From positions 27,348 to 91,347 of the forward strand of contig JBAXDL010000003.1 in NCBI GenBank assembly GCA_037140955.1: DNA of 64,000 nucleotides. Direction: 5' to 3'. Source of the stretch: a bacterium. Its GTDB lineage: Bacteria > Patescibacteriota > Minisyncoccia > Moranbacterales > GWC2-37-73. The notes below the pieces were generated by a model. It was not told the origin of the DNA. It searched no databases and saw only the letters and a list, made by a program, of their open reading frames with translations. This document shows positions 3,267 to 47,258 of the stretch, piece by piece. The position numbers and the translations under genes were made by a program. Numbering within the stretch: the stretch's first letter is position 1; the number at the start of each line of letters is the position of its first letter.

Positions 3267-4166
3267 TTACTTTTTCTTTTCAACTTTCTTTGCTTCAACA
3301 TTAACTGCTTGATCCACAGACACTGTTTGTTCAGCGTTTTTTAGTTTATAGAAAACTTTGTTTTCATTGCGCAGGTCAAAATATGCCACATTATTTTTTT
3401 TGTCACCAGTAATTTCTTTTTTAAAAATAGTTTCTAAGGTTTTCATTGCTCCCTCGAGAGAGTATTGTGTTGAGAAATAGAACTCAGTTCCCTGACTTGT
3501 TTTGACATTAATCTCCTGAGCCATTCGAGATGGTGTGAAATATTGATCAATAATTTCAAAGCCAATTTTTGCAAGCTGATCCTTTATTCCCAGCATGTAC
3601 TGTTCATAGGAAAAATCAACAATATCGCTTCCAATTTCAACCTCTTTTCCGCTTTTATCAACAATTTGCAAAAGATTGTTCTGAATCAACTCCTGTGATG
3701 AAAAATCAGCCTCGCTATATGCAATACCGTTCTCGTCCAACATGAAACATTTTTCATTGCTACACCAAACAAGCAGCGCATTTCTTTCTTCAATATTTAT
3801 GTCAACAGAATCTGGAAATCTCTTTGAAACTTTTATTGTTTTTATTTTTTTAAAATTTTGACTCAAAATCTTCTCAACCTTCCCTTGAGAAATAAACAAA
3901 AAATTATTTCTAGGAATTATTCCCAAATATTTTCCATCCAATGAAACACCAACAACAGCTTGCAATTGAGCATTGTCCAATTCTTTTGCTCCAGCAACAA
4001 CAATATTTGAAATCTTCAGATATGGAGAAAAAAACACAATATATATAGTAACCGCAATAAAGGATATTAACAGTAGATAGAAAATAACCTTAGAAAAAAT
4101 TACTTGTTTGACATTATTGCTTTCGCAATGATCACCTGTGCAATTTTTGATATATTTTTTGCTCAT
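3267..4166 (-). CDS. ftsQ: Cell division protein FtsQ/DivIB-like (N-terminal TM plus POTRA-like region).
   Basis: Short cytoplasmic N-terminus, a single TM (VIFYLLLISFIAVTIYIVFF), then a POTRA-like pattern ...I.N..V.G......I..........R..P..........RNALLVW.... Confidence 0.4.
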   Translation of the reverse strand: MSKKYIKNCTGDHCESNNVKQVIFSKVIFYLLLISFIAVTIYIVFFSPYLKISNIVVAGAKELDNAQLQAVVGVSLDGKYLGIIPRNNFLFISQGKVEKILSQNFKKIKTIKVSKRFPDSVDINIEERNALLVWCSNEKCFMLDENGIAYSEADFSSQELIQNNLLQIVDKSGKEVEIGSDIVDFSYEQYMLGIKDQLAKIGFEIIDQYFTPSRMAQEINVKTSQGTEFYFSTQYSLEGAMKTLETIFKKEITGDKKNNVAYFDLRNENKVFYKLKNAEQTVSVDQAVNVEAKKVEKKK

Positions 4167-5213: not shown

Positions 5214-6356
5214 CTACTTTTCCAATAATGCTTTTTCAATAAACTGACCAAATTCCCTTTGAAATCTTTCTCTTGAAAATTCTTCTCCTCTTTTTCTTAT
5301 CACATCTTTATCATAATTCCCCTCATTATTCAAAAATCTTCTCACGCCATCAGCCAAAACTTCGGGAGTTTGGGCATCAAAAAATTCCCCCGTAACACCC
5401 TCTTGCACGGTTTCCAGTGCGCCACCCTTGCGAAATGCAATCACAGGAACACCACACAGCATTGATTCTATTGGAGTTATTCCAAAATCATCCTCTGCTG
5501 CGAAAATAAAAGCCTTGGCTCCTTTGAAATATTGTTGAGTGACCTTGTCCGACTTCCATCCCAGAATCTTAATGTTGTCCTTGGCAATTTTTCTGAGGTG
5601 TTTTTCTTGTTTACCTGTTCCAATCACAACCAAGGGCAATCCCAATTTATTGAAAGACTCCACCACCAAATCAACTTTTTTGTAAGGAGAAAGACGTGAG
5701 ACAACCAGGAAATAGTCTTTGTCTGTCAATTCTTGGCTTTTGGTTTCTAAATCCACTTCTTGCCTCAGGCTAACTGGTGGATATATTACCGAAGAATCAC
5801 GCCTATAATATTTTGAAATTCTTTTTTGCGTATACGATGAATTTGCAATCAAGTGTTCCGGCCTTTGCGCTGCAAGATTGTCCCAGAGGCGCAAATAGTT
5901 GAAAAAGAAGCGCAAGAAAAAATTAGCTTTTGTTTTTCTATCTTCCTTCAAATATCTCTCATTATAATCCCAAACCCAACGCATTGGCGAATGCAAATAT
6001 GCCACATTCACCGTGTCCAATTTTGTCACAATCCCCTTGCTCCAAGCGCCAGAAGATGAAATGACCAAGTCAAATTCACGCAAATCAAATGTCTCAGGAA
6101 TAACAGGGAAAAAAGGCAACAGCCATTGCTGGTTTTTTCGCAAAATTTTTGGAAACTTCTGCAAATAAGACGCAACAATGTTTCTATCCTTAAAATAGGT
6201 TGATTTTATTTTTTCATCATACAAAATGGTATAAATCGGAGCATCTGGATACATCTTGGCAATTTCCAAAAGAACCCGCTCTGCACCACCAAAAACAGTG
6301 ACAAAATCATGCACAATGGCAACTTTTATTTTTTTTTCAGCAACATCTTCTTTCAT
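5214..6356 (-). CDS. Glycosyltransferase family 4 (GT-B, group 1).
   Basis: GGAERV motif near the N-terminus. The C-terminal half is of the E-x7-E type (GITPIESMLCGVPVIA). The start overlaps the stop of the upstream recombinase by 4 nt. Confidence 0.7.
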   Translation of the reverse strand: MKEDVAEKKIKVAIVHDFVTVFGGAERVLLEIAKMYPDAPIYTILYDEKIKSTYFKDRNIVASYLQKFPKILRKNQQWLLPFFPVIPETFDLREFDLVISSSGAWSKGIVTKLDTVNVAYLHSPMRWVWDYNERYLKEDRKTKANFFLRFFFNYLRLWDNLAAQRPEHLIANSSYTQKRISKYYRRDSSVIYPPVSLRQEVDLETKSQELTDKDYFLVVSRLSPYKKVDLVVESFNKLGLPLVVIGTGKQEKHLRKIAKDNIKILGWKSDKVTQQYFKGAKAFIFAAEDDFGITPIESMLCGVPVIAFRKGGALETVQEGVTGEFFDAQTPEVLADGVRRFLNNEGNYDKDVIRKRGEEFSRERFQREFGQFIEKALLEK

Positions 6357-7165
6357 AAAGGACTTTTTATGTTTCTTAGCATCGGATTCGTCACCTTGGT
6401 ATATATCTGTGTTGTCCTTATATTAGCATGACCAAGAAGTTCCTGTACATATCGAACATCAACACCATTTTCCAACAAATGTGTTGCAAAGGAATGCCTG
6501 AGCGAATGAAATGTGGCATCCTTTTGGATTCCAGCTTTTTGCAAGGCATTTTCAAAAACCTTTTGCGCCGTTCGTTCCGTGAGCTTTCCCTTGCGCTCAC
6601 TAGCAAAAACAAACTCATCAAGATCCTTGCCTGCAATCAGGCTTTGAATTTTTTCAACCAATTTTTCAGGAAGCACTGTGATTCGATCCTTGTTTCCTTT
6701 GGCTCCCTTGAGATGCATTGTCAATTCAGGCAAATCCAAATCCTTGACCTTCAAGTTTATGACCTCACTAACTCTCAGTCCCCCAGCATATGCAAGCGCA
6801 ATCATCAAATTGTGCTTTTGATTGATAATTTCATTCAAAATGACTTGAATTTCATCTCGCGAAAGCACAATTGGAAGCTTGCTGGCAGTTTTGGCAAAAT
6901 GCACATCAATTTTTCCTCTATATTTGAGCACATTCCAGCAGAAAAAATTAATCGCTTGCAGACTTTGATTTGTTGTCTGAGAAGAATATCCTTTGTCCAC
7001 TTTTGATAGGATGAATTTCTTGATAAAATCAACATCAACCTTTTCAAAATTATCCTTTTTTGCTTGCAAATACTCAGCCACACAGAAAGAATAACTCTTG
7101 ATAGTTTTTGGACTGTATTTTCTCAGTCGCAATTCATCTTGAAGTTTTTGCAAATAGACGTCCAT
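6353..7165 (-). CDS. xer: Tyrosine-type site-specific recombinase, XerC/XerD family (short, 270 aa).
   Basis: The C-terminal catalytic region is HSLRHSFATHLLENGVDVRYVQELLGHANIRTTQIYTKV (R..H..R..H...Y). It is translationally coupled (ATGA overlap) to the downstream GT4 gene. Confidence 0.85.
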   Translation of the reverse strand: MDVYLQKLQDELRLRKYSPKTIKSYSFCVAEYLQAKKDNFEKVDVDFIKKFILSKVDKGYSSQTTNQSLQAINFFCWNVLKYRGKIDVHFAKTASKLPIVLSRDEIQVILNEIINQKHNLMIALAYAGGLRVSEVINLKVKDLDLPELTMHLKGAKGNKDRITVLPEKLVEKIQSLIAGKDLDEFVFASERKGKLTERTAQKVFENALQKAGIQKDATFHSLRHSFATHLLENGVDVRYVQELLGHANIRTTQIYTKVTNPMLRNIKSPL

Positions 7166-7311: not shown

Positions 7312-7340
7312 AACGTGCGCGCCTGCCAGGCGCGCACGTT
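7312..7340. promoter_or_regulatory. 29-bp perfect GC-rich palindrome: aacgtgcgcgcctg-c-caggcgcgcacgtt.
   Basis: 14-bp arms with a 1-nt centre. It is the most GC-rich 30-mer in an AT-rich spacer, lies between the divergent xer and the 7417 gene, and is preceded by an overlapping 14-bp imperfect hairpin (7267-7314). Confidence 0.4.
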
Positions 7341-7416
7341 GTGCGAAATCTAGAATTTACATTTTATTTTGAAGGGCAAGAAAAATTATTTAATACGAGA
7401 ATATAATTTAACTTTT

Positions 7417-8070
7417 ATGAACACATATATTTATAAGAAATATGTAATTATTTTTGGATTTATTATTGGCTCCCTTCTTTTTATTATAGATCACCATTTG
7501 GAATATTTTTTGTACGGATTTATTATTGGCGCAATAATTTCTGTTGTTTATGTTTATACTTTTATTCCCAAGGCGGAATCTTCAGTTATAGTTTTTGATG
7601 ATGAAAAAATGATGCCCGGATCACCAATGCCATCAAAAATTTACATTTTAAGAGGGTTTTTTATAGGATTGCTTGTTTCTTTTATATTGATTCTGATTCC
7701 AGTTTTTATGCGCTCAATCCGTGACTTTAATCAAGCAAGAAAAGCTCATACGGATTATGTTTACGTAATTCAAAATTGCGGAAATAATCCAAGTGATAGT
7801 TGTCTCAGGAAATTGTGTTCTAATAATTACGATTGCGGGTTTGCTGTAATAAAAGATCCTCTTTCTTCTTTTGCATTAGAATATCATGATTATCGAGTTG
7901 AAAATGCTTCATATGCTTGGACGTTACTAATTCCAGATATCAGCGAGGGACTACAAGTATATTATATGTTTGGTTATTTGGGATTACTTGTCTTGCTATT
8001 ATTTTTAATCATTCCAGTATTATTAGGCTCGCTATTCGGTTTTATATATGGAAAATCGAAATACAAATAA
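7417..8070 (+). CDS. Hypothetical 4-TM membrane protein with a Cys-rich central loop. The start is uncertain: the ORF track uses TTG at 7369, and ATG 7417 is preferred here.
   Basis: Hydrophobic segments occur at both ends. The central loop reads NCGNNPSDSCLRKLCSNNYDCGF. A TATAAT lies at 7402-7407, 9 nt before the ATG. No recognisable family. Confidence 0.35.
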   Translation: MNTYIYKKYVIIFGFIIGSLLFIIDHHLEYFLYGFIIGAIISVVYVYTFIPKAESSVIVFDDEKMMPGSPMPSKIYILRGFFIGLLVSFILILIPVFMRSIRDFNQARKAHTDYVYVIQNCGNNPSDSCLRKLCSNNYDCGFAVIKDPLSSFALEYHDYRVENASYAWTLLIPDISEGLQVYYMFGYLGLLVLLLFLIIPVLLGSLFGFIYGKSKYK

Positions 8071-8330
8071 ATTTTCTTGCCCTTTATTTTTAATGAAAAT
8101 TCTCGACATCGTCCAACACGGCATATCTGGTTTCGCTACGCTACACCCAAATGCTTCGCACTTCAGATGGTGCCAATACGTTGATCTGAAATGTTCCCAA
8201 ATTAGGAACACTTCAATTTGCATTCATAAAAAATTCATTTGTCCACATATTGAATACAACTAAATTTCAACATTGATTCATATATGCAAAAGTGATCAAG
8301 AAATAATATTTGATATTTTTCATATTAAGA

Positions 8331-8359
8331 TTGCCCATTTTTTAATCTTTTGCTACAAT
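8331..8359 (+). promoter_or_regulatory. Near-consensus sigma70-type promoter: TTGCCC, 17 bp, TACAAT. The -10 ends 6 nt before the ATG, predicting a leaderless mntA-hepT transcript.
   Basis: ttgccc (8331-8336), a 17-nt spacer, tacaat (8354-8359), ATG at 8366. There is no SD. Confidence 0.4.
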
Positions 8360-8365
8360 ACAGCC

Positions 8366-8665
8366 ATGACTACATTAACTATCAAAAATCAAATAATCCC
8401 TATTTTAAAGCGCCAAGGAGTCCTTAAGGCGGCTATTTTTGGTTCTTTTGCAAGAGGTGAGGAAACAAAAAGAAGCGATGTTGATATTTTGGTAAAACTT
8501 GGCAAAAACAAGAGTTTGCTTGATCTTGTCGGGCTTAAGCTTGAATTGGAAGATAGTCTTGGTAGGGATGTCGATGTCGTTTCCTATGGAGGAATTAACC
8601 CACTCTTGAAAAATATAATTTTAAAAGAACAAAAAGTGATTTATGAAAGAAAAAAAAGATCCTAA
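8366..8665 (+). CDS. mntA: MntA-type minimal nucleotidyltransferase (antitoxin of a HepT/MntA TA pair).
   Basis: GSFARGEETKRSDVDILV (GS-x9-13-D-x-D nucleotidyltransferase motif). About 99 aa from ATG 8366. The track's 8273 start adds an unlikely 31-aa extension. Confidence 0.75.
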   Translation: MTTLTIKNQIIPILKRQGVLKAAIFGSFARGEETKRSDVDILVKLGKNKSLLDLVGLKLELEDSLGRDVDVVSYGGINPLLKNIILKEQKVIYERKKRS

Positions 8666-8987
8666 AATTTTTCTTACACATATTTTAAAAAGTATAGAGA
8701 GAATAGAAGATGATACGGCTGGTTTGTCTGAGGCTCAATTTTCAAGAGCACTAACCGTTCAAGATGCGGTTGTGCGTAGGCTGGAAATTATCGGTGAAGC
8801 TGTAAGAAATATTGCAGATGATTTTAGAAAAAAGCATACTAAAATCCCTTGGAAGAAAATGGCAGGATTGCGTGATGTTTTGATTCATGAATATTTTGGT
8901 GTCGACATGGAACTTGTTTGGAAAATTATTAACAATGATATTCCAAAATTGAAAAAACAAATTTTGAAAATAGTTGAAAAACTTTAG
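8643..8987 (+). CDS. hepT: HepT-type toxin (DUF86, HEPN family).
   Basis: R-x4-HxY motif (RDVLIHEYF). 114 aa. It overlaps the mntA stop by 23 nt. Confidence 0.7.
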   Translation: MKEKKDPKIFLTHILKSIERIEDDTAGLSEAQFSRALTVQDAVVRRLEIIGEAVRNIADDFRKKHTKIPWKKMAGLRDVLIHEYFGVDMELVWKIINNDIPKLKKQILKIVEKL

Positions 8988-9037: not shown

Positions 9038-10186
9038 CTATTCCCCCTTCAAGATAACAGAAATTTCCCTCGCACATTGGTCCCAATCAAATCTTTTCAC
9101 ATTTTTAAGACCTTTTTTGATAAGGTCTTTTTTCTTTTCTTTGTTAGAAATTATTTCAAAAATATTCTCAGCAATTTCATTTGGATTACTTGGATCAACC
9201 AAAGCAGCTGAACAGGTATCAAATTGCATCTTTGCTTTTTCAAGACCGGATTCCGGTTCAAGCCCGGAATGACAAGATGTGATCTCGGAAATCGAAGAAT
9301 TGTTTGAAGCAACAACGCAGCATCCAACACTTTGCGCTTCCAAAATTGGAATTCCAAAGCCTTCATATTGTGTTGGAAAAACAAAAACATCTGCATTTTT
9401 CAAAAGTTCCCATTTTTCATCATCACCCACGAATCCAAATTCTTGAATTTCCTCATTCCATTTGGAATTTGATATTTGGAATTTGATATTTACATAATTA
9501 TGTCCTGGTTTTCCAGCAAGTATAAGATGATGCGGAATATTATATTTTTCCTTCAATATGTCAAAAGCTTTGATGATATTTGCAATATTTTTCCTTTCCT
9601 CAATTCTACCTAAAAATAAAAGAAATTTCTGATTTCTAATTTTGGATTTTATTTGATATTTGTCATTTGGATTTTGGATTTTATTGCCGTATCCCTCATA
9701 AATAACCTTTATTTTTTCATTTGCAATTCCATATAGTTCAATCAAATCCTTCTTGGTGTTTTCAGAAACTGAAATTATCACATTTGCCCAAATGCAGGAT
9801 TTTTTGATAGTAAGACGCATATAAAAGCGCTCAAACCAAGAATATGCTCGTGGAAGAAATTCATATTCCAGGCCATGCACTGTCACGATAGTATTTCTTG
9901 GATGAATCATTGGCACAGTATGTGCAGGAACAAACAATTTCTCCACTGGATGCAAAAACATTTCCAATGACAATCCAAATTGTGTCCAAAATATTGGAAA
10001 TCTTATTTCCGTGATTTTCCAATTTTCTGGCAACTTGAAATCTATTTTTTGATTTTTACGAATATACAAAATTACTTGCTCATTCTGCAAGTAATTTGTA
10101 AGATTTTCTATAACCTGATATGAATATTCTTCAATACCAGTTCTTTGTTTCAAAAATGCCCGAGAAGCATCGATGCCTATTTTCAT
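9038..10186 (-). CDS. Glycosyltransferase family 4 (group 1). The C-terminal region contains a GC-rich palindromic-repeat fragment in frame.
   Basis: QYEGFGIPILEAQSVGCCVVAS (E-x7-E region). The peptide SCHSGLEPESG is encoded by the GC-rich 9258..9282 segment shared with the element inside elp3. Confidence 0.7.
   Translation of the reverse strand: MKIGIDASRAFLKQRTGIEEYSYQVIENLTNYLQNEQVILYIRKNQKIDFKLPENWKITEIRFPIFWTQFGLSLEMFLHPVEKLFVPAHTVPMIHPRNTIVTVHGLEYEFLPRAYSWFERFYMRLTIKKSCIWANVIISVSENTKKDLIELYGIANEKIKVIYEGYGNKIQNPNDKYQIKSKIRNQKFLLFLGRIEERKNIANIIKAFDILKEKYNIPHHLILAGKPGHNYVNIKFQISNSKWNEEIQEFGFVGDDEKWELLKNADVFVFPTQYEGFGIPILEAQSVGCCVVASNNSSISEITSCHSGLEPESGLEKAKMQFDTCSAALVDPSNPNEIAENIFEIISNKEKKKDLIKKGLKNVKRFDWDQCAREISVILKGE
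9258..9282 (-). repeat. Partial copy of the GC-rich palindromic element, in frame within the GT4 coding sequence (CHSG-peptide family). It is 20 bp identical to 46908-46927.
   Basis: The minus-strand sequence tgtcattccgggcttgaacc matches tgtcattccgggcttgaccc at 46908 apart from a one-base insertion (19 of 20 identical). It lies in a local GC spike. Confidence 0.55.
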
Positions 10187-45572: not shown

Positions 45573-47258
45573 ATGGAAAAATACTATGACAATTATATCA
45601 AATCAGCCATCAAACAGCTTCCCGACTTTCTGGATGATTTTTCAAAACTCAAAAAAAAGCTGTCCAAGCAATACAGTATTCCACTTCCAACTAACGCAAA
45701 CTTGCGTGACAGATACAATCAACTTGTAGAAAAAAGAATCATCAAAAAGAATGAAGCTTTTGAAGACATTCTTTGCACGCGTGGAATTCGCACGCAATCA
45801 GGAGTCGCAGTGGTGGCCGTCCTCACCAAGCCCTATCCATGTCCTGGAAAATGCATCTATTGCCCAACAGAAAAAGACATGCCCAAGAGTTATCTCTCAA
45901 ATGAACCGGCAGTGATGCGCGCTATTGACTCTCAATTTGACCCCTATCGTCAAATGCAAAATCGCTTGCGCTCACTGGAGCTAAATGGGCACCGAACAGA
46001 CAAGATTGAGCTTATTGTGATGGGTGGAACTTTTTCATTCTTACCCAAAGCATATCAAAAAAAATTCATAATCAGATGCTTTGCTGGGGCCAATGAATTT
46101 AAAAACAAAAGACAAAATTCAAAAGACAAAATTCAAAAGAGCCCACAAGAGCAATTGCAATTTGAGCAAAAAAGAAATGAAACCGCAAAGCAAAGAATCA
46201 TCGGGCTCACACTTGAAACAAGACCGGACTATATTAACGAAAAAGAAATTTTAAACTTCAGAGAACTTGGCTGCACGCGAGTTGAACTTGGGGTGCAGAG
46301 TATTTATGATGATGTGCTCGAATTCAACAAGCGTGGCCATCTTGTGAGCGAAACAATCAGAGCCACTAAGCTGCTCAAGGATGCAGGCTTTAAGATAAAC
46401 TATCATATGATGCCAGGTCTTCCAGGCTCGAGCATTGTTCGTGATTTTGAAATGTTCAAGTCTCTTTTTGATGGACCAAATTTTCAACCAGACATGCTCA
46501 AGATATATCCAACAGTTGTGCTCAAAGATAGTGAGTTGTATGATATTTGGAAAAAGAAAAAATACATACCGCTTTCAAATGAAGCTTTTGAAAAATTGGT
46601 AGTAAGGATAAAGAATGAAGCTATTGTGCCATATGTTCGCATTGCAAGACTCATTCGCGATGTGCCGACACCATCAATCATGGCTGGACCAATGGTTTCA
46701 AACTTGAGACAAATCATCATTCCGAAGTCAAATTGTCCCTGCATTCGTTGTCGCGAAGTTGGTGCAACCTACAAAATAAAAGAAAAAATTGTTCTGGATA
46801 GAATTGACTACAAAGCTTCAGATGGTCAAGAAATTTTCTTGCAATATGTTTCGCCTGACAAAAAAAAATTATTCGCCCTTTTGCGCCTTCGAATTCCAAA
46901 CTCCTCGTGTCATTCCGGGCTTGACCCAAAATCCAGCAAGTCTCACCAAAAAACAAACGACCTGGATTCACGCCTCCGCGGAAATGACAAGCTTTATGAT
47001 CTTTTGCCAATCCTGCAAAGTGCCGCCCTTATCAGAGAGGTTCATACCTATGGAAAATTAACCAAGATAGACACGCAAGACAAAACATCTCCGCAACATA
47101 TTGGACTTGGAAAAAAACTTCTTCTTGAAGCTGAAAAAATTGCCAAAGAAGAATTTGGTATGTCAAAAATAACAGTAATTTCTGGTGTTGGTGTGCGTGG
47201 ATATTATAGAAAAAATGGATACAGGCTTAAAAATACCTATCTAACAAAAAAGATATAA
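45573..47258 (+). CDS. elp3: Elp3-family radical SAM / GNAT protein (tRNA U34 carboxymethyluridine synthase homolog). Carries an in-frame palindromic-element insertion.
   Basis: VAVVAVLTKPYPCPGKCIYCP radical-SAM cluster region characteristic of Elp3, and a C-terminal GNAT (HIGLGKKLLLEAEKIAK). 561 aa. Confidence 0.75.
   Translation: MEKYYDNYIKSAIKQLPDFLDDFSKLKKKLSKQYSIPLPTNANLRDRYNQLVEKRIIKKNEAFEDILCTRGIRTQSGVAVVAVLTKPYPCPGKCIYCPTEKDMPKSYLSNEPAVMRAIDSQFDPYRQMQNRLRSLELNGHRTDKIELIVMGGTFSFLPKAYQKKFIIRCFAGANEFKNKRQNSKDKIQKSPQEQLQFEQKRNETAKQRIIGLTLETRPDYINEKEILNFRELGCTRVELGVQSIYDDVLEFNKRGHLVSETIRATKLLKDAGFKINYHMMPGLPGSSIVRDFEMFKSLFDGPNFQPDMLKIYPTVVLKDSELYDIWKKKKYIPLSNEAFEKLVVRIKNEAIVPYVRIARLIRDVPTPSIMAGPMVSNLRQIIIPKSNCPCIRCREVGATYKIKEKIVLDRIDYKASDGQEIFLQYVSPDKKKLFALLRLRIPNSSCHSGLDPKSSKSHQKTNDLDSRLRGNDKLYDLLPILQSAALIREVHTYGKLTKIDTQDKTSPQHIGLGKKLLLEAEKIAKEEFGMSKITVISGVGVRGYYRKNGYRLKNTYLTKKI
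46908..46989 (+). repeat. GC-rich palindromic element of about 82 bp inserted in frame in elp3 (encodes SCHSGLDPKSSKSHQKTNDLDSRLRGNDK). Terminal inverted repeat gtcattccggg / cccgcggaaatgac.
   Basis: Local GC spike with inverted termini. In other frames it reads VIPGLTQNPA / HASAEMTS, typical of a widespread palindromic-repeat peptide family. A 20-bp partial copy (one-base insertion difference) lies at 9258-9282. Confidence 0.6.

Follow-up and report, generated by a model that had tools for sequence, protein, structure and literature searches.

We have analysed a 64-kb stretch of DNA (the window, ca. 36% GC) from a Moranbacteria-like Patescibacteria metagenome-assembled genome (MAG), in which the gene for Elp3, the radical-SAM/acetyltransferase enzyme of tRNA U34 carboxymethylation (positions 45573-47258, + strand, 561 aa), contains a palindromic segment of 82 nt at 46908-46989 (+). 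This segment is very probably a decayed head-to-head heterodimer of two TGTC/CGTC-tagged repetitive extragenic palindromic (REP) units that is read through as a loop of Elp3. Tagged dimers of this kind are miniature palindromic repeats resembling REPINs, and they fall in one class with RPE-6 and RPE-4, two of the Rickettsia palindromic elements (RPEs), and with the dRS3 repeat of Neisseria. A preliminary description of the window had pointed to a widespread palindromic repeat that tolerates in-frame insertion into proteins, as RPEs do, and this is supported. The likeness to RPEs is even closer than proposed, the units being CGTC-tagged REPs by the published definition, a family stated to contain RPE-6 and RPE-4.

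The element reads TGTC-ATTCCGGG-cttga-CCCAAAAT-CCAG, then a spacer, then CTGG-ATTCACGC-ctcc-GCGGAAAT-GACA, both tags being included in the 82 nt. The left unit (46908-46936, +), which we compared with the intact TGTCATTCCGGGCTTGACCCGGAATCCAG of metagenome loci and aligned with the other units, is composed of the tag TGTC (46908-46911), the stem arm ATTCCGGG (46912-46919), the loop CTTGA (46920-46924), the arm CCCAAAAT (46925-46932), in which two G-to-A changes break 2 of the 8 pairs, and the tail CCAG (46933-46936). It is followed by the A-rich spacer caagtctcaccaaaaaacaaacgac (46937-46961, +, 25 nt), encoding KSHQKTND and similar to the orthologous spacer of the relative L002, and by the inverted right unit (46962-46989, -), which reads TGTC-ATTTCCGC-GGAG-GCGTGAAT-CCAG on the minus strand. 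The right unit is of the CGTC-1 type (8-bp stem, 4-nt loop), two substitutions away from the canonical CTGGATTCCCGCCTCCGCGGGAATGACA, a form found exactly in locus L189. The inverted termini reported earlier are there as described, TGTCATT (46908-46914) and AATGACA (46983-46989) making a perfect 7-nt inverted repeat, and an inner perfect pair is formed by AATCCAG (46930-46936) and CTGGATT (46962-46968). The predicted fold has an energy of -23.2 kcal/mol (z = -2.5 against shuffles). What had been called a GC spike is an elevation, but a modest one (0.50 in the element, 0.39 in the gene). The Elp3 frame across the element reads ...NSSCHSGLDPKSSKSHQKTNDLDSRLRGNDKLY..., and the peptides VIPGLTQNPA and HASAEMTS, attributed before to other frames, are both found in the +2 frame (RVIPGLTQNPA...WIHASAEMTS).

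The identity of the host gene is given by Pfam (Radical_SAM and Radical_SAM_C) and by E values of ca. 1e-116 against solved Elp3 chains. Compared with Elp3 of Methanocaldococcus infernus (6IAZ) the window protein has a surplus of ca. 30 residues, placed at 454-483 by HMMER. We compared it with the 120 orthologs nearest to it, which are 64-76% identical and carry the annotation Moranbacteria or other Patescibacteria (n = 121 with the window). The stretch from LLRLR to IREVHTYG is bimodal in length, with a short loop of 7-22 aa in 69 of the 121 and 46 aa in the window. In DNA, the empty site between the same anchors measures 51-57 nt in orthologs versus 138 nt in the window, from which the insert is 81 nt or 27 aa long, C446-D472 (46908-46988); the S and K on its two sides are host residues, and the adjoining peptides are IPNSSCHSGLDPK and LYDLLPILQSAALIR. 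Since the solved Elp3 structures and 69 of the 121 orthologs do not have the segment, it is an insertion. The ortholog alignment that the preliminary description had asked for thus bears out its in-frame insertion, with the boundaries corrected.

An AlphaFold2 model of the window Elp3, built from 117 sequences, has a mean pLDDT of 85.8 and a pTM of 0.86, and compares with solved Elp3 structures at target-normalised TM-scores of 0.76-0.90. Across residues 441-470 the confidence is 61, 51 and 48, with pLDDT <50 at residues 446-451 and 458-466, that is, the insert occupies a low-confidence loop of an otherwise confident fold, as the proposed structural check was meant to find out. In the model it lies between a strand at 433-442 and another at 484-492, upstream of the QHIGLG motif, so that as modelled it is a flexible loop within the C-terminal acetyltransferase (GNAT/KAT) region and no inter-domain linker; the earlier placement between the radical-SAM/linker region and GNAT has to be abandoned. 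The low confidence and the lack of secondary structure in the model suggest that the loop is exposed at the surface.

A second hypervariable loop was seen in Elp3 at 46095-46160 (residues ca. 175-196; pLDDT 67 at residues 181-190). There the window has a 14-nt tandem duplication, AGACAAAATTCAAA x2 (46110-46137), and four related loci have TGTC-REP dimers (L003 10536-10609, L004 594-667, L021 10536-10591 and L028 10536-10594). These read DYPx/CHPEFISGS..MLKQVQHD/KLL (slashes mark junctions), and several database orthologs also carry dimers at this loop.

The window has two exact occurrences of the first 20 nt of the element, TGTCATTCCGGGCTTGAMCC, one at 46908-46927 (+) and the other at 9255-9274 (-), where 100 shuffles lead one to expect none. 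The chance probability of ca. 1e-12 quoted before is a per-site value; over the whole window the composition estimate is ca. 5e-8, which is still decisive. The second occurrence is located in a family-4 glycosyltransferase (GT4) gene (9038-10186, -, 382 aa) and encodes SCHSGLEPESG in its frame, in agreement with the second partial copy already noticed in that gene. It belongs to a single left-type unit, TGTC-ATTCCGGG-CTTGA-ACCGGAAT-CCGG on the coding strand (9246-9274, -), with 7 of 8 stem pairs intact. The whole in-frame insert is 60 nt long (C305-T324; 9215-9274, -; CHSGLEPESGLEKAKMQFDT) and comprises this unit plus ca. 31 nt of a decayed, no longer recognisable remainder of the former spacer and right unit. 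Placing it by solved GT4 structures failed, these being too distant, and it was placed instead by orthologs, in which the loop is 12 aa long in 63 of 120, against 32 aa in the window. The junctions tct/TGTCAT.../tg(t/c)tca are common to the window and to two orthologs (L207, 80% identical, and L208, 60% identical), and the latter, with identical junctions, has kept a full dimer, CHSGLDPESRAKHAGEGLDSRFHGND.

CGTC-tagged REPs were defined by Di Nocera, De Gregorio & Rocco (2013, BMC Genomics 14:522; PMC3733652) as units with an unpaired 5' tag (CGTC, TGTC or CCTC), a stem of 8-9 bp starting with A-T and T-A pairs, a loop of 4 nt in family 1 and 5 nt in families 2-4, and an unpaired 3' tail CCA. 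In the window the tags are TGTC (46908-46911), GACA (46986-46989) and TGTC (9274-9271, -); all three stems start AT... and end ...AT, with 7 of 8 pairs in the GT4 unit and 6 of 8 in each Elp3 unit; the loops are CTTGA (5 nt) in the left Elp3 and the GT4 units and GGAG/CTCC (4 nt) in the right Elp3 unit; and the tail is CCAG in the left and right Elp3 units, whereas the GT4 unit has CCGG. The published REPs are mostly head-to-head dimers, heterodimers being common, and intragenic dimers encode 20-30 aa (PMC3733652); the Elp3 element is likewise a head-to-head heterodimer, of a 5-nt-loop and a 4-nt-loop unit. The peptides described for CGTC-1 (SFLRKQES...LLDSRFRGND, CHSRESGNP, VIPAKAGI), CGTC-2 (RHSELVSGS) and CGTC-3 (VIPGLDPGIH...GRVKPGHD) (Additional file 3, PMC3733652) have the same signatures as those of the window element and of the Elp3 and GT4 orthologs. 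In that work RPE-6 of Rickettsia and dRS3 of Neisseria were identified with CGTC-1, and RPE-4 with CGTC-4, and there was no dedicated transposase (PMC3733652). There are also differences from the 2013 repeats, whose hosts were mainly Alphaproteobacteria among five phyla, whereas here the host is a Patescibacteria MAG of low GC, the tag is uniformly TGTC, the same loops are occupied in ca. 45% of orthologs and the window copies are eroded.

Further units were sought around Elp3 in 80 loci taken from genome assemblies (1.29 Mb; 1.36 Mb with the window), a set that by its design over-represents Elp3 copies. A permissive scan (GTCAT anchor, loops <=29 nt) gave 242 matches versus 115 in the control and was replaced by a stricter GTCAT-anchored hairpin scan, which found 61 units in the 80 loci and the window, versus 11-12 in reversed or shuffled controls. 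The tag was TGTC in 54 out of 54 curated units, and 41 of them had a perfect 8-bp stem with a loop of 5 nt (31 units) or 4 nt (10 units); tails included CTA (17), CCA (16) and CTC (9). The stems of the subfamilies vary yet stay paired (ATTCCGGA, ATCCTGAA, ATGCTGAA, ATTCCCGC, ATTCCCAT and ATCCCGGG, among others). In an alignment of 31 distinct units, pairs 1 and 2 were invariant (A-U and U-A in all 31), and 5 of the remaining 6 pairs (5 of 8 overall) changed on both sides, giving 64 compensated cells; shuffles gave 22 +/- 4, and sliding the 3' partner left many fewer than 64. Most units were arranged head to head, and the relatives' loci contained 21 such dimers of 51-203 nt, with tags outward and partners that often had different stems. 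No target-site duplication was present at any of 22 dimers (these 21 and the window Elp3 copy), the flanking letters, always T...A, belonging to the inverted repeat itself.

The family is also dispersed well beyond these relatives. The intact left unit, TGTCATTCCGGRCTTGAHCCGGAATCC, was found in 6 viral contigs and at least 120 metagenome stretches, so that further copies, which the preliminary description had proposed to look for, are known from the window itself, from the related MAG loci (1.3 Mb) and from both of these collections. Among the matches listed, the metagenome contigs have a GC content of 34-64%, mostly 45-55%, and the TGTC family is therefore not confined to Patescibacteria. Within this same list, at least 76 of the 108 units having enough flank were in head-to-head dimers, of which the commonest design, TGTCATTCCGGRCTTGAHCCGGAATCC, a spacer of 10-25 nt and CTGGATTCCCGC(TTTC/CTCC/CTTC)GCGGGAATGAC(A/G), is that of the window element; ca. 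17 of 127 units were inside open frames of at least 250 codons (e.g., L160, CHSGLDPESRSKNKNWIPAFAGMT), though some of these frames may be spurious where the metagenome contig is GC-rich, and the others were intergenic. The right-hand partners of metagenome dimers end in GACA or GACG. A BLAST search of the canonical dimer against plasmid records matched 36 records at 215 places, one of them within ileS, and the matches, obtained through the CGTC-1 unit, were in Azospirillum, Legionella, sphingomonads, Cupriavidus and Neisseria, which are hosts named in PMC3733652.

The viral-classed contigs (L081-L086, from IMG/VR, whose classification we have taken) range in GC from 0.44 to 0.60, and in one of them, L083, dimers are spaced ca. 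2 kb apart (94-146, 2116-2139, 3879-4010 and 5889-5941). Locus L109 has a tandem run of four TGTC units that repeat every 36 nt (6391-6522), a clustered array of the kind mentioned for Neisseria and Wolbachia in PMC3733652. A left flank, TTTACTTTGATT and variants of it, is shared by L094, L106, L137, L144, L145, L167, L170, L185, L191, L193 and L197, and many metagenome dimers with this flank have on their right a sequence resembling RSCTTCRGAAWT, which is suggestive of a composite repeat of larger size, or else of a target preferred in these organisms of ca. 50% GC. Nested palindromes were seen in the right units of L094, L099, L106, L177, L185, L194 and L197, where the 4-nt loop of CGTC-1 is swapped for another hairpin (ATTCCCGC-TGGAGTTTACCCCGTA..TACGGGGC-GGGAAT).

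The Elp3 copy is an old one. It differs from the canonical dimer, present exactly in L189 and L160, by 4 substitutions, all of them GC to AT and two in each unit, and in each unit 2 of 8 stem pairs are lost; the predicted energy is -22.4 kcal/mol for the window copy versus -32.7 for a "repaired" one, a cost of ca. 10 kcal/mol. The nearest relative with available DNA (L002, 75% protein identity) has an intact dimer with the same junctions and a similar spacer, and is identical to the window at 63 of 82 positions of the element (77%), against 72% in the flanking codons. From the shared junctions and spacer we infer that the copy was inherited from a common ancestor and is now eroding in an AT-rich genome. 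All genic copies are open in the frame of their host. Measured from GTCAT to ATGAC, dimers are 80, 80, 74, 74 and 71 nt long at this Elp3 site and 74, 74, 56 and 59 nt at the second one, all of them 2 modulo 3, whereas nine intergenic dimers are split 3/3/3 among the three classes. As many of the genic copies are orthologous, this speaks of frame-preserving change over time rather than of many independent events. The CH...ND frame dominates because a TGA in GGAATGAC closes one frame and internal TAG or TGA triplets close others.

The same loops are occupied in a large fraction of the orthologs. At the Elp3 loop there are inserts in 52 of 121 (43%), 28 with TGTC-REP signatures and 24 with other inserts, and at the GT4 loop in 57 of 120 (47%), 16 and 41 respectively. 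The junctions are fixed (IPxxx/CH ... ND/KLY in Elp3; tct/TGTCAT ... /tgyTCA in GT4) and the interiors differ (CHSGLDPES, CHPELVSGS, CHPERSR, CHSRESGNP and CHSELAEES types). The Elp3 loop also hosts unrelated GC-rich palindromes (L012 11303-11392, L016 5481-5582, L023 7206-7295, L027 4011-4100, L011 5883-5978, and further L050/L051/L058/L061 and L059-L064), namely GGAGGTTCAACCTCC (GSTS..EVEPP), CCCCTCCC..GGGAGGGG (PPSYQGGGWEGV) and GGGAGCTCAGCTCCC x2, and, in a more distant clade, GTCATTGCGAGGAGCGAAGCGACGTGGCAATC (VIARSEATWQSQ) and ..CTTACAGGTTAAAACCTGAGCTCC (YRLKPELQ). In L016 a remnant of the TGTC element, AATGATAAA, is kept after the unrelated hairpin, and in L066 only TGT-GGGAATGACA is kept. 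Occupied and empty Elp3 alleles are interleaved in a neighbour-joining tree, which is too coarse for counting gains and losses. The common insert-free allele NNAKHF (AATAATGCCAAA; e.g., L006 11330-11386) resembles the element end GGAATGACAAA, being one mismatch from AATGACAAA, and at the second Elp3 site there is a likeness between DEK (GATGAAAAA) and CATGACAAA; the GT4 site has no such resemblance. These likenesses may be left over from a former copy or may reflect a preference for certain targets.

We read this pattern as the result of an old entry into a loop that tolerates inserts, with turnover afterwards, for which nesting, deletion and replacement by the dominant subfamily of each genome are possible routes. 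Repeated targeted insertion would be a less favoured reading. A more specific version, to which we would give a low probability, is that the two loops are long-lived "landing pads", whose tags (TGTCAT...ATGACA) direct the exchange or overwriting of the resident copy by the active REP subfamily and attract unrelated palindromes. The constant junctions, the differing interiors and the AATGATAAA remnant after other hairpins are suggestive of it. If it were true, surface loops of conserved enzymes in Patescibacteria would be rewritten again and again by an active process directed to these sites.

There are other explanations for the segment. It might have been co-opted, either as a basic peptide (KSSKSHQK...RLRGNDK) that aids tRNA binding or as an mRNA hairpin that makes ribosomes slow down ahead of the final portion of the acetyltransferase domain, which implies selection keeping "some palindrome" at the Elp3 site. 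The persistence of inserts from several unrelated palindrome families in 52 of 121 Elp3 and 57 of 120 GT4 orthologs would fit, and so would the window copy evolving no faster than its coding flanks. However, Elp3 works without the insert in 69 of 121 orthologs and in archaea, Dehalococcoides and eukaryotes, the peptides at the site are unrelated between families, the window hairpins are degrading, the AlphaFold2 model assigns no structure to the insert, and the same pattern in the unrelated GT4 loop argues for tolerance and not for function, so that we hold co-option to be improbable. Still less probable is a classical MITE (a miniature transposable element with inverted repeats), derived by deletion from an insertion sequence of the DDE type and moved by cut-and-paste, with terminal inverted repeats of the form TGT...ACA. 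Many DDE elements typically have TG...CA ends, which the terminal repeats TGTCATT/AATGACA would fit, and 51-203 nt is within the MITE range, but the 22 dimers lack target-site duplications, and on this account we have rejected the idea. Moreover, the "terminal repeats" are autonomous hairpin units that also occur singly, and with different stems in dimer partners; there is covariation in the stems, and nothing but the tag, the tail and pairs 1 and 2 is fixed, a REP pattern unlike that of a transposase-binding terminal repeat; and no parent insertion sequence was seen in 2.1 Mb of sequence.

That the segment is a native, lineage-specific loop of Elp3, palindromic by accident and similar to GT4 by chance, is what the insert common to the closest relatives at identical junctions might suggest. 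This is the least credible of the alternatives, with next to no probability left. It is refuted by the dispersed copies, the same dimer being intergenic or in unrelated genes of unrelated organisms, and by a 20-nt match for which chance predicts none; besides, short-loop orthologs are interleaved in the tree with insert-bearing ones. Nearly as implausible is that the RNA or the protein loses the segment as an intervening sequence, such as a mini-intron, so that mature Elp3 would lack it. The compact folding of the element would agree with it, and introns in rRNA and tRNA genes are a known trait of Patescibacteria (10.1101/2025.07.03.662931). Yet 82 nt are too few for a self-splicing intron or an intein, and the genic copies are stop-free with lengths differing by multiples of three, unlike the intergenic ones, which would not be expected if they were removed. 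Rfam gave no match at E <= 1 in 46850-47050, and at gathering score only two tRNAs in the whole window; with this and the frame conservation, an intron or other RNA family was discarded.

The interpretation as a decayed REP heterodimer translated within Elp3 has several points against it as well. The window holds only 2 copies in 64 kb, both decayed and both genic, which are no sign of activity in this genome; related MAG loci have up to 7 units per ca. 20 kb. The figure of 98% paired positions is partly circular, the units having been picked by a hairpin filter, although the covariation between subfamilies stays informative. Retention of the insert in mRNA and protein is presumed from the conservation of the frame only, and the keeping of inserts in 43-47% of orthologs could reflect weak positive selection and not neutrality. 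As for a mobilising enzyme, a tblastn search with three RAYT sequences from the supplement of PMC3733652 found no homolog in the 64-kb window, and the literature after 2013 yielded no dedicated enzyme for CGTC REPs. Two related loci do have RAYT-like Y1_Tnp genes (L080 6913-7434 and 9302-9823; L048 2993-3739; Pfam E 5e-7 to 2e-14), but those of L080 are flanked by GTAG/GTGG hairpins (CGCGTAGGAGGCAAATCTTGTTTGCCTCC; TTCGTGGGCCGGGCTTTAGCCCGGC) and not by TGTC-type ones. The flanking hairpins mean that GTAG-type "REPtrons" exist in Patescibacteria, in L080 adjoining the Elp3 gene. No RAYT flanked by TGTC units was found in the window or the related loci searched, and a "REPtron" scan for genes bracketed by TGTC units across all loci turned up no candidate for the enzyme gene, all that it returned being intergenic dimers and arrays at regular spacing.

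With these reservations, the history we propose begins with the entry of a dimer into a loop of the acetyltransferase domain of Elp3 that could tolerate it, in a common ancestor of this genome and the nearest Moranbacteria sampled. Because its length kept the frame and it had no in-frame stop, it would have been transcribed and translated as a flexible surface loop of 27 residues, and GC-to-AT mutation would have been eroding it ever since. The GT4 copy would have had the same history with further decay, keeping the left unit and losing the right one. The insert would be neutral passenger sequence, and the hotspot pattern may result from the tolerance of the loop together with the turnover of repeats at an occupied site. 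The family may spread as single-stranded DNA hairpins handled in trans, most plausibly, by analogy, by an HUH/Y1 transposase of the RAYT kind. Mobilisation is the weakest part of this proposal, and a Y1/HUH-type enzyme is here a tentative suggestion, with the odds rather against it.

The Elp3 insert resembles RPEs in being a small, in-frame and stop-free palindrome read as an extra loop in housekeeping genes of a reduced, AT-rich genome. The RPE concept reportedly goes back to Ogata et al. in 2000. RPE-1 is longer and unrelated in sequence. Expression of RPE-bearing proteins has been shown in Rickettsia, whereas the window Elp3 is read from sequence alone. With RPE-6 the likeness extends to the peptide, LDSRLRGND here versus ...LLDSRFRGND and HSRFRGND endings in R. 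conorii, although the host is of another phylum and the left unit here is of the 5-nt-loop CHSGLDPES/VIPGLTRNP type and not of the RPE-6 one. The ATTCCC-N8-GGGAAT hairpin is shared with Neisseria dRS3/NIME, and the canonical right unit matches N. gonorrhoeae records with 89% identity over 37 nt, at no fewer than 40 places per record. The dRS3 repeats are intergenic, clustered and used as integration sites by filamentous prophages, a role not seen for the window element. In common with GTAG REPs, REPINs and BIMEs there is a tetranucleotide tag beside a small hairpin, an inverted doublet that is likely to be what moves, a pairing of unlike partners as Escherichia coli BIMEs have it, and no target duplication, but the tag is TGTC instead of GTAG/GTGG and the stem starts with A-T rather than G/C. 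Small dispersed repeats of cyanobacteria, hairpins of ca. 20-30 nt that are said to insert into genes and into one another (Elhai and coworkers, 2008), are alike in nesting, but unrelated in sequence and without the tag and tail architecture.

As a kind, CGTC-tagged REPs and RPE-type in-frame palindromes are already known. In a literature search on such REPs in Patescibacteria or the candidate phyla radiation (CPR), none of the papers ranked at the top used the REP phrase, and the peptide strings of the family had no match in a full-text search. Within the literature searched, what appears to be new is the host lineage, the host genes (Elp3 and GT4) and the high occupancy and turnover of the same loops. 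With ca. 45% of the orthologs of two unrelated enzymes carrying a palindrome-derived loop, the RPE phenomenon is found at scale in a second reduced-genome lineage. For repeat biology, it is significant that near-identical dimers occur across organisms of 34-64% GC, and complete genomes of ca. 1 Mb rich in intact copies would be a compact place to seek the enzyme that moves CGTC-type REPs; having only about a thousand genes, Patescibacteria genomes could expose it. For annotation, stop-free palindromes lengthen conserved proteins by 20-30 residues, create spurious overlapping open reading frames (ORFs) and seed recurring "junk" peptides in databases (CHSGLDPES, VIPGLTRNP, LDSRFRGND). Two overlapping open frames, 46789-47061 (+) and 46717-47010 (-), of 90 and 97 aa, exist in the window only because the stop-free palindrome bridges them, and such frames are the likely source of "hypothetical proteins" with VIPGLTQNP-type peptides.

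Two other features of the window were noted. A perfect GC-only hairpin at 7315-7337 (GTGCGCGC-ctgccag-GCGCGCAC), unrelated to the TGTC family, sits in the gap between the ORFs 6353-7165 (-) and 7369-8070 (+). Directly downstream of GT4, at 8273-8987, there is a nucleotidyltransferase (Polbeta/NTP_transf_2) and HepT-like RNase pair, presumably an MNT/HepT toxin-antitoxin module to judge by the two Pfam domains; at the corresponding place L208 has a second GT4 gene.

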